Source: Diadema antillarum (taxonomy: Eukaryota). Taken from it: DNA of 64,000 nucleotides. The notes beneath the pieces were generated by a model. It searched no databases. It saw nothing but the letters and a program-made list of their open reading frames with translations, and had not been told where the DNA came from. The translations under genes and the position numbers were made by a program. The DNA is taken from contig NW_027271136.1 of assembly GCF_040938485.1 (NCBI RefSeq), positions 1 through 64,000 of the forward strand. The letters are read 5' to 3'. Positions 33,979 through 35,459 of the stretch are shown here, piece after piece (the first letter of the stretch is position 1; every line of letters begins with the position of its first letter).

Positions 33979-35328
33979 ATGGAAATTCCGCTTTCCGCTC
34001 CCCCACAGCATACAGCTAAGCCTGTCGTGGGTGGCACCACTAGTACGAGCGCCCTGCATACAGCTAAGTCTGTCGTGGCGATGGTGACTACAGCCGTGCA
34101 TCATGAACCCAAGTGTTCGCCGGCTAGTATTAAGGCTCCAACAAAGAAAGAAGGGAATGGGAAAACCCTTAAAAAACCCACCAAACCGGGCCTAAGTAAG
34201 AAGGCAGCTCCCCCTAAAGAGAAGACGGACGCGGAGGTGCTTTCCCGCCTTTCTAAACTCGAATCCATGTTTGAAAAGGTCATGGAAATACTGCCGTCTC
34301 AGCCTACTCGTATCCAACAACAGCAACTACGTGCCGGCCATGTTGGCACGGCTTGTACCGCAGAAAACCACGGTGGTGTGCCGTTTGGGGGCATGGATGT
34401 GTGTGCTACAGACGATAGTACGCAAGCACGCGGTACGCTGCACGACGACCACGGCGGCAGCAGCTACAGTGGGGATGAATGCGATTTCCCTGCGGCGGCA
34501 GCGGGTTACGCACCCGCAGAGCTCACGGGGCGGCCAGTACAAGTGCCATCCTTTGCTGCAAAATTTGCGGTCTCCGCCTGTGTGGGCGACCCTATCAATG
34601 ACGAATTGGCAAATTCTACGAATTATCTCATCTCCCATTGTCTGGAGGAAAAATCTATGGAAGAGTCAGCGGCAAACTACCCAGCACCGAGCAATTGCCC
34701 CAACTTACTAGTCCCTAAAGTCAATCCAGTGATTTGGGATAATGTGACACAGACTACGCGCAGCAGAGACGTTAAGCTGCAGAGAGTACAGAAATCTCTT
34801 ACCCGCGGGCTGTGTGCGTTCCTACAAACTCTTCCTACTGACTTGAACGAGGCGCAACAGGACGCACTCGCTTTACTCTGTAATGCCAATTACGAGATGA
34901 ATTGCCTGAGAAAGGAGCTGATCAAGCCCGATATGAACGCTGCTTACGCACATCTGTGCAAGCCTACTACGCCCGTGACCGCGTTTCTATTCGGTGATGA
35001 CTTGGGACAACGTGTAAAAGATCTCAAGGAGGAGAATAGGGCTGCCTTTAGTGTGGTTAAAGGCCAGGCTAAGAGATCTACTCATCAGCCGTACCACCCA
35101 TACAAGCGCACGGCCAGCGGTGGATTCAGCCGGAAGCAATATCGGAACGCAGGCTGGCTCGCAGCTGGCGATACATCCAGGCCTTTTTTAGGCCAGCAGC
35201 AGCGGGGATACAGACATTCAGCCCCGCACACGCAGACTCGCCCACCTCCAGCTCATGCGCACAACCGGGGGCAGAGCTACTCGACAGCAACCCCAGCCAA
35301 GCCAAACACTGTGTCACGGAGAAAGTAA
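33979..35328 (+). CDS. DIRS gag-like ORF1 (449 aa)
   Basis: ATG-initiated first ORF of the element. Contains DIRS-gag-like motifs (VPKVNPVIW, D.KLQ.VQK, DALALL..AN, LFGDDL) and a basic R/Q/P-rich C-terminus. Confidence 0.9.
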   Translation: MEIPLSAPPQHTAKPVVGGTTSTSALHTAKSVVAMVTTAVHHEPKCSPASIKAPTKKEGNGKTLKKPTKPGLSKKAAPPKEKTDAEVLSRLSKLESMFEKVMEILPSQPTRIQQQQLRAGHVGTACTAENHGGVPFGGMDVCATDDSTQARGTLHDDHGGSSYSGDECDFPAAAAGYAPAELTGRPVQVPSFAAKFAVSACVGDPINDELANSTNYLISHCLEEKSMEESAANYPAPSNCPNLLVPKVNPVIWDNVTQTTRSRDVKLQRVQKSLTRGLCAFLQTLPTDLNEAQQDALALLCNANYEMNCLRKELIKPDMNAAYAHLCKPTTPVTAFLFGDDLGQRVKDLKEENRAAFSVVKGQAKRSTHQPYHPYKRTASGGFSRKQYRNAGWLAAGDTSRPFLGQQQRGYRHSAPHTQTRPPPAHAHNRGQSYSTATPAKPNTVSRRK

Positions 35329-35459
35329 CTGCACTACCCAAGGAGGTAAGTTGCAGGCCTAGCTCTTGTTGTGGAAATACACAATCTACTCACACTGTAC
35401 AGTCAGTTTTTGACATTGAACATGTAGATGTTCCATTAGACCTGCCCGTTGGGGGTCGA

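Follow-up and report, generated by a model that had tools for sequence, protein, structure and literature searches.

How does a DIRS1-like retrotransposon translate a pol frame that has no usable ATG, and how does it reach the tyrosine recombinase (YR) frame behind it? The window, the whole stretch of 64,000 nucleotides of Diadema antillarum DNA analysed here, contains at 33728-38728 a complete and intact element of this type, about 5.0 kb long and on the + strand. A gag-like ORF, a pol ORF containing a reverse transcriptase (RT) and a tyrosine recombinase ORF are all present, and based on its inverted ends and internal complementary region the element is classed as DIRS1-like. Its features are as follows (a slash within a motif marks the cut).

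33728..38728, + strand: whole DIRS1-like retrotransposon, delimited by near-identical copies and an empty-site allele
33728..33793, + strand: left inverted terminal repeat (inverted pairs I3, I4)
33979..35328, + strand: ORF1, gag-like, 449 aa, gag stop at 35326-28
35073..37325, + strand: pol frame (RT, presumably RNase H-like and methyltransferase-like), with the RVT_1 match and its first ATG at 35790
35184..35190, + strand: slippery heptamer U_UUU_UUA, predicted -1 frameshift site from gag to pol (phase, conservation, heptamer swaps)
35190..35345, + strand: pol-frame linker, 52 codons, common to the predicted Gag-Pol and Gag-recombinase
35202..35227, + strand: weak 6-bp G/C hairpin, 11 nt 3' of the heptamer, stimulator role unsupported
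35343..35351, + strand: predicted splice donor GAG/GTAAGT, cut 35345/35346, pol phase 0
37301..37319, + strand: predicted splice acceptor, pyrimidine-rich TGCAG/G, cut 37318/37319, recombinase phase 0
37319..38293, + strand: tyrosine recombinase, 324 codons counted from the acceptor (Phage_integrase, E=1e-8)
38392..38507, + strand: internal complementary region, pairing with both element ends (I4, 40 nt, 100%; I2, 80 nt, 100%)
38619..38728, + strand: right inverted repeat and right extension (I2, I3)

The Pfam match to RVT_1 covers residues 215-376 of pol (E=1.6e-22), and the Phage_integrase match lies in a frame spanning 37304-38293. Pfam gave no RNase H or Dam match in pol, where the sole other match was a weak one to PCIF1_WW (aa 609-680); TDAS/TDN and FPPF motifs are visible, which we take to mark the RNase H-like and methyltransferase-like parts. 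The gag-like ORF1 had no Pfam match, and its residues 200-420 are 99-100% identical to named Diadema sea urchin proteins. All 27 copies that were scored are 98-100% identical to the element, 23 of them essentially full length, and an empty-site allele in sequencing run X5 joins 33728 to 38727, the flanks being separated by 1 base and without a long target-site duplication. Judged by these near-identical dispersed copies and the empty site, the element is young and recently mobile.

Several further observations concern the ends and the surroundings of the element. The right extension harbors a perfect donor-like CAG/GTAAGT (38700-38712), mirrored in the internal complementary region (complement 38445-38462); the stretch around it, TTTCAAACAGGTAAGTTCTC, is nearly identical in two further families of the same genome (D and E) and might serve in replication, as a recombinase site or as a U1 site. 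Sequencing depth in run X5 is raised about 10-fold over 38379-38732, which indicates that these ends are common to many other elements. Four loci (L135, L136, L137, L138) are internally deleted derivatives that keep both ends and are probably non-autonomous; two lack 33792-35843 and two about 33872-37134 (window coordinates). An inverted repeat at 32992-33228, 500 nt upstream of the element, with 113-nt arms that are 91% complementary and 11 nt apart, looks like a MITE, and short direct and inverted repeats at 28798-29041 (repeat families D2 and D5, pair I8) are probably another small mobile element.

The first-pass annotation had read the end of gag as an HIV-type frameshift site, and it is very likely right in this. 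The pol frame indeed opens after the TAA at 35070-72 and has no ATG before 35790, a position inside the RVT_1 match; TTTTTTA at 35184-90 is in X_XXY_YYZ phase with pol as its -1 frame, base 35184 being codon position 3 in gag and codon position 1 in pol. The expected fusion of about 1,115 aa agrees with the computed length of the predicted Gag-Pol, 404 + 711 = 1,115 aa. As many as 28 ATGs lie upstream of 35790. The heptamer is unchanged in 30/30 fetched copies and none of them has a new ATG before RT in the stretch compared, so that the missing start is not damage to a single copy. The TAA at 35070 is lost in two copies, and the position at which the pol frame opens is therefore incidental. 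The bare motif is in itself no rarity: the genome matches a 14-nt pattern drawn around it 291 times, and the reversed control pattern 1,030 times. The significance of the heptamer lies in its position and phase in homologues. Within the pol frame, position 35488 is G in the window copy, a private change, and A in 27/29 other copies.

A protein search of the same genome, in which 150 of 2,554 candidates were scored, revealed at least four further families with 60-64% identity over the query. C-TTTTTTA-G is found at the same place in 23/24 fetched loci from this genome, the exception being a decayed copy, and the heptamer is common to all five DIRS families sampled there. For a wider comparison, 80 loci from a metagenome scan were joined with eight loci from this genome; the collections of viral contigs and genome contigs yielded no relative. 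These 88 loci comprise 7 without a pol start, 20 without a gag match (inspected separately, most are decayed or cut), 16 with broken frames and 45 that are intact. The intact loci fall into 28 lineages at 75% DNA identity, with RTs 35-68% identical to that of the window; the representatives were chosen on RT identity, blind to the motif. The first-pass annotation had suggested looking for TTTTTTA and the open -1 frame in related DIRS elements: a slippery X_XXY_YYZ heptamer is in phase within the gag/pol overlap in 25/28 lineages and 37/45 loci, the canonical heptamer being absent in 3/28 and 8/45, respectively. The other two phases of the overlap gave 6/28 and 2/28, and an equal-length stretch of gag directly upstream, used as control, gave 2/28. 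Expected are 8.8/28 under synonymous recoding (P 3e-12, as P values overstated since the lineages are related and not independent tests) and 4.7/28 under codon shuffling.

The heptamer is U6A in 18 lineages and A6C in 4, and UUUAAAC, GGGUUUU and GGGAAAC complete the set. On an RT tree that was built without L092 and in which most deep forks are unresolved, well-supported sister pairs differ in their heptamer: L057 has A6C and L059 U6A, L070 has GGGUUUU and L081 GGGAAAC. These swaps, more than the P values, carry the argument for conservation. The codons agree with it, as all 18 lineages with F-L at the site write it as xxT TTT TTA. There is no conserved ATG position, and across the lineages the opening of the pol frame precedes the site by 1-48 codons, often by 5 or fewer, and by just 2 in family D. 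In three further distant loci (34-36% identity, without gag match) G_GGA_AAC is in phase 4-5 codons after the frame opening. The distant DIRS-like elements L091, L093 and L085 are of a long-overlap type in which a stop-free third frame overlaps the whole of pol; L091 and L093 have an in-phase G_GGA_AAC at gag/pol. Taken from frames, phase, the missing usable ATG and conservation, a -1 frameshift from gag to pol at U_UUU_UUA is very probable, and the signal is a general feature of this DIRS group and not of one copy.

The downstream structure is a different matter. The stem after 11 nt described by the first-pass annotation is present, with GCGGGG at 35202-07 and CCCCGC at 35222-27, but it folds no better than shuffled sequences (z -0.5 to -1.5). 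Its role as a conserved stimulator was not borne out by the shuffles, by folding of the lineages or by the alignment fold. Over 25 lineages the mean z downstream of the site was -0.76, with values below -2 in 4/25 compared to 2/25 upstream, and the fold of a 7-sequence alignment had 4 pairs and no gain in covariation; the folding tests thus detected no stimulatory structure 5-9 nt downstream of the heptamer. A hairpin of a G-run and a C-run is visible 11-14 nt downstream in four of the families of this genome, which makes a weak stimulator role possible. According to the review text PMC7618472, levels of frameshifting above 1% almost always require a stimulator, which as a rule is 5-9 nt from the site, and the lack of one here is the main gap in the frameshift reading. 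U6A alone is reported in the text of PMC3458567 to give 4-6% of -1 product in reticulocyte lysate. The efficiency of the slip is likely low here and set mostly by the heptamer itself.

The first-pass annotation had overlooked a donor and an acceptor through which the same frameshift likely leads into the recombinase. GAG/GTAAGT at 35345/35346 is the sole donor of at least 7 bits before 37600 in the element, with bit values that are approximate as the donor matrix and the acceptor score are rough. The donor cut falls between two codons of pol, 20 nt downstream of the gag stop; that of the acceptor TGCAG/G (37318/37319) falls between two recombinase codons, five codons into the recombinase frame. 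Removal of the predicted intron 35346-37318 (1,973 nt) would take out RT/RNaseH/MT in frame and leave Gag, the 52-codon linker and 324 recombinase codons, 780 aa in total. A donor of at least 7 bits lies no more than 60 nt from the gag stop in 23/28 lineages, compared to 12/463 control windows. In 26/28 the best donor is located beyond the gag stop, and in 22/28 it is in pol phase 0, a position that is partly forced since a phase-0 GTRA donor is automatically a gag-frame stop; a phase-2 donor is barred by the pol frame. The donors of L058, L060, L079 and L092 are tandem GTAG/GT, four bases apart, with phase 0 and phase 1 cuts. Nonsense-mediated decay follows a 50-55 nt rule, and the best donors of all 28 lineages, which range from -1 to +51 nt relative to the gag stop, would fit an escape from it. 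The acceptor position is the same in all 5 families of this genome and in 3 more lineages, and the best acceptor is in recombinase phase 0 in 13/16 lineages examined for the recombinase start. The exact donor/acceptor pair is also used by two NCBI models, P0008 and P0078 (XP_071502116.1 and XP_071483612.1; ...ALPKE/VLKLPF...), which are automated. Among the N-terminal extensions of 120 recombinase homologues no clear spliced linker was seen, P0129 perhaps excepted, and a gag search at longer lengths returned 2 chimeric host models. Altogether, a splice from 35345 to 37319 is probable.

Could splicing alone explain how pol is reached? The heptamer would then be a 3' splice site, TTTTTTAG/G, joined to an upstream donor without any frameshift, and in its favor a G follows the heptamer in 17/18 U6A lineages, giving AG, and the NCBI models do reach the pol frame by an intron. 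However, the two models enter pol through two different introns, neither with its junction at the heptamer AG; a gene predictor working around a frameshift would be expected to do this. Before 35346 the window element lacks any donor that reaches 7 bits. Phase 2, which such a splice would need, is the phase of the best upstream donor in 0/18 lineages, GTRA in that phase being a gag stop, and the heptamers of 7 lineages lack the AG, while L062 reads TTTTTTA/T. The swaps of the site among U6A, A6C, UUUAAAC, GGGUUUU and GGGAAAC argue strongly against TTTTTTAG as a splice acceptor, which makes this explanation extremely unlikely; as a general mechanism it is largely refuted by the A6C, UUUAAAC and GGGAAAC lineages, though some families could make secondary use of it. 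It is also very unlikely that the heptamer is just the inherited coding for Gag P-F-L-G, with pol translated from a start of its own (non-AUG, internal entry or subgenomic RNA). The motif does recur in Gag, and in 11/25 lineages an ATG occurs after the site and before the RT core, but the positions of these ATGs are unrelated and closely related subfamilies lose them (L036 compared to L049). With the amino acids kept and the codons recoded, only 8.8/28 are expected, and the peptide itself varies (FL, KN, LN, GF, GN) while slipperiness stays.

If the frameshift from gag to pol is real, the recombinase could still be made by another route: from the ATG at 37310, by a second frameshift or by reinitiation, the donor-like sequence being a backup gag stop. 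The ATG 9 nt before the acceptor in the window family and in L055 speaks for this, as does the recombinase frame, which is -1 relative to pol; frameshifting has been suggested for Ngaro recombinases (Poulter and Butler 2015, as quoted in PMC13003380). In addition, no intron-less genomic copy was found among the 42 loci with both gag and recombinase; for this, all 141 loci were scanned, match positions of linker and recombinase were compared and 7 odd loci were fetched. The deleted copies break at 33791/35844 and 33871/37135-41, away from the splice sites. Contigs of six sequencing runs likewise show no splice joint on the element, but look like DNA and are uninformative on this point. Against a second frameshift, an in-phase heptamer is seen in 0/16 pol/recombinase overlaps, although their geometry is also -1. 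Against an own start, the first recombinase Met comes 255-447 nt into the frame in 5/16 lineages, families C, E and L060 having none for 312-447 nt. The 13/16 in-phase acceptors also argue for splicing, and L062, L070, L072 and L086, in which the local acceptor is missing, have a phase-0 acceptor 207-234 nt upstream. We consider such another route unlikely.

The reading that we prefer, with the gag-pol slip and the same slip on a spliced message for the recombinase, is quite probable as a whole. A minority of ribosomes would slip back one base at U_UUU_UUA and produce the 1,115-aa Gag-Pol; where 35345 has been spliced to 37319, the same slip would give the 780-aa Gag-linker-recombinase. With the gag stop located ahead of the donor, full Gag would come from unspliced and spliced messages alike. 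On balance, we favor the view that in one invertebrate DIRS1-like group, and perhaps in most of the superfamily, a -1 slip ending gag feeds the linker and a splice picks RT or recombinase. If this single expression logic is true, both enzymes would be made only as Gag fusions, in proportions determined by a single slip and a single splice, and the junction would be held within about 50 nt of the gag stop, avoiding nonsense-mediated decay.

For the translation of the ATG-less DIRS pol and recombinase frames, exact testable coordinates are now given for both. The model would extend retrovirus-style gag-pol frameshifting to tyrosine-recombinase retrotransposons, and it suggests a route of packaging in which both enzymes are carried as Gag fusions. 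The coupling would be unusual, a spliced exon being read only after a frameshift, and it would account for introns invented by automated annotation in DIRS elements. The lineages also offer a panel of naturally occurring slippery sites that have little structure behind them. Frameshift plus splice is a novel variation on an established mechanism, the splice being somewhat less certain than the frameshift.

In Ty1/copia a splice removes pol and favors Gag, and in the case of retroviral env a splice skips gag-pol to reach Env. As in these systems, different proteins would arise here from spliced and unspliced forms of one transcript, but the spliced product would need a frameshift too. With DIRS1-like elements as described by Piednoel 2011 (PMC3266345) and with DIRS-1 (PMC7192593) the element shares gag, pol and YR ORFs, inverted terminal repeats, right extension and internal complementary region; a word search in the available text of both found no translation mechanism for pol or YR. 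No description of a gag-pol frameshift or splice in DIRS1-like elements was found in the available texts of PMC3266345, PMC7192593, PMC3783388, PMC6681497, a Xenopus DIRS preprint, PMC4495291, PMC4157794, PMC13003380, PMC2685390, PMC9004415, PMC5633606, PMC3458567 and PMC7618472; an earlier suggestion might be found in Goodwin and Poulter 2001 or in Poulter and Butler 2015. Ngaro elements have the same ORF order, and according to the quotation of the latter work in PMC13003380 a -1 frameshift was proposed to lead from RT/RH to the downstream YR. That proposal concerns the pol-to-YR junction of split-direct-repeat elements, whereas here the slippery signal is at gag-to-pol, with 0/16 at pol-to-YR. 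There is also a close likeness to HIV-1 gag-pol, as described in the text of PMC7618472, with the identical heptamer in the same phase joining gag to an ATG-less pol frame. Unlike HIV-1, the window element shows no significant stem-loop 5-9 nt from the site, and no protease is seen in its pol; the host of the signal is a tyrosine-recombinase retrotransposon and not a retrovirus, and access to the third enzyme likely takes a splice in addition to the slip.
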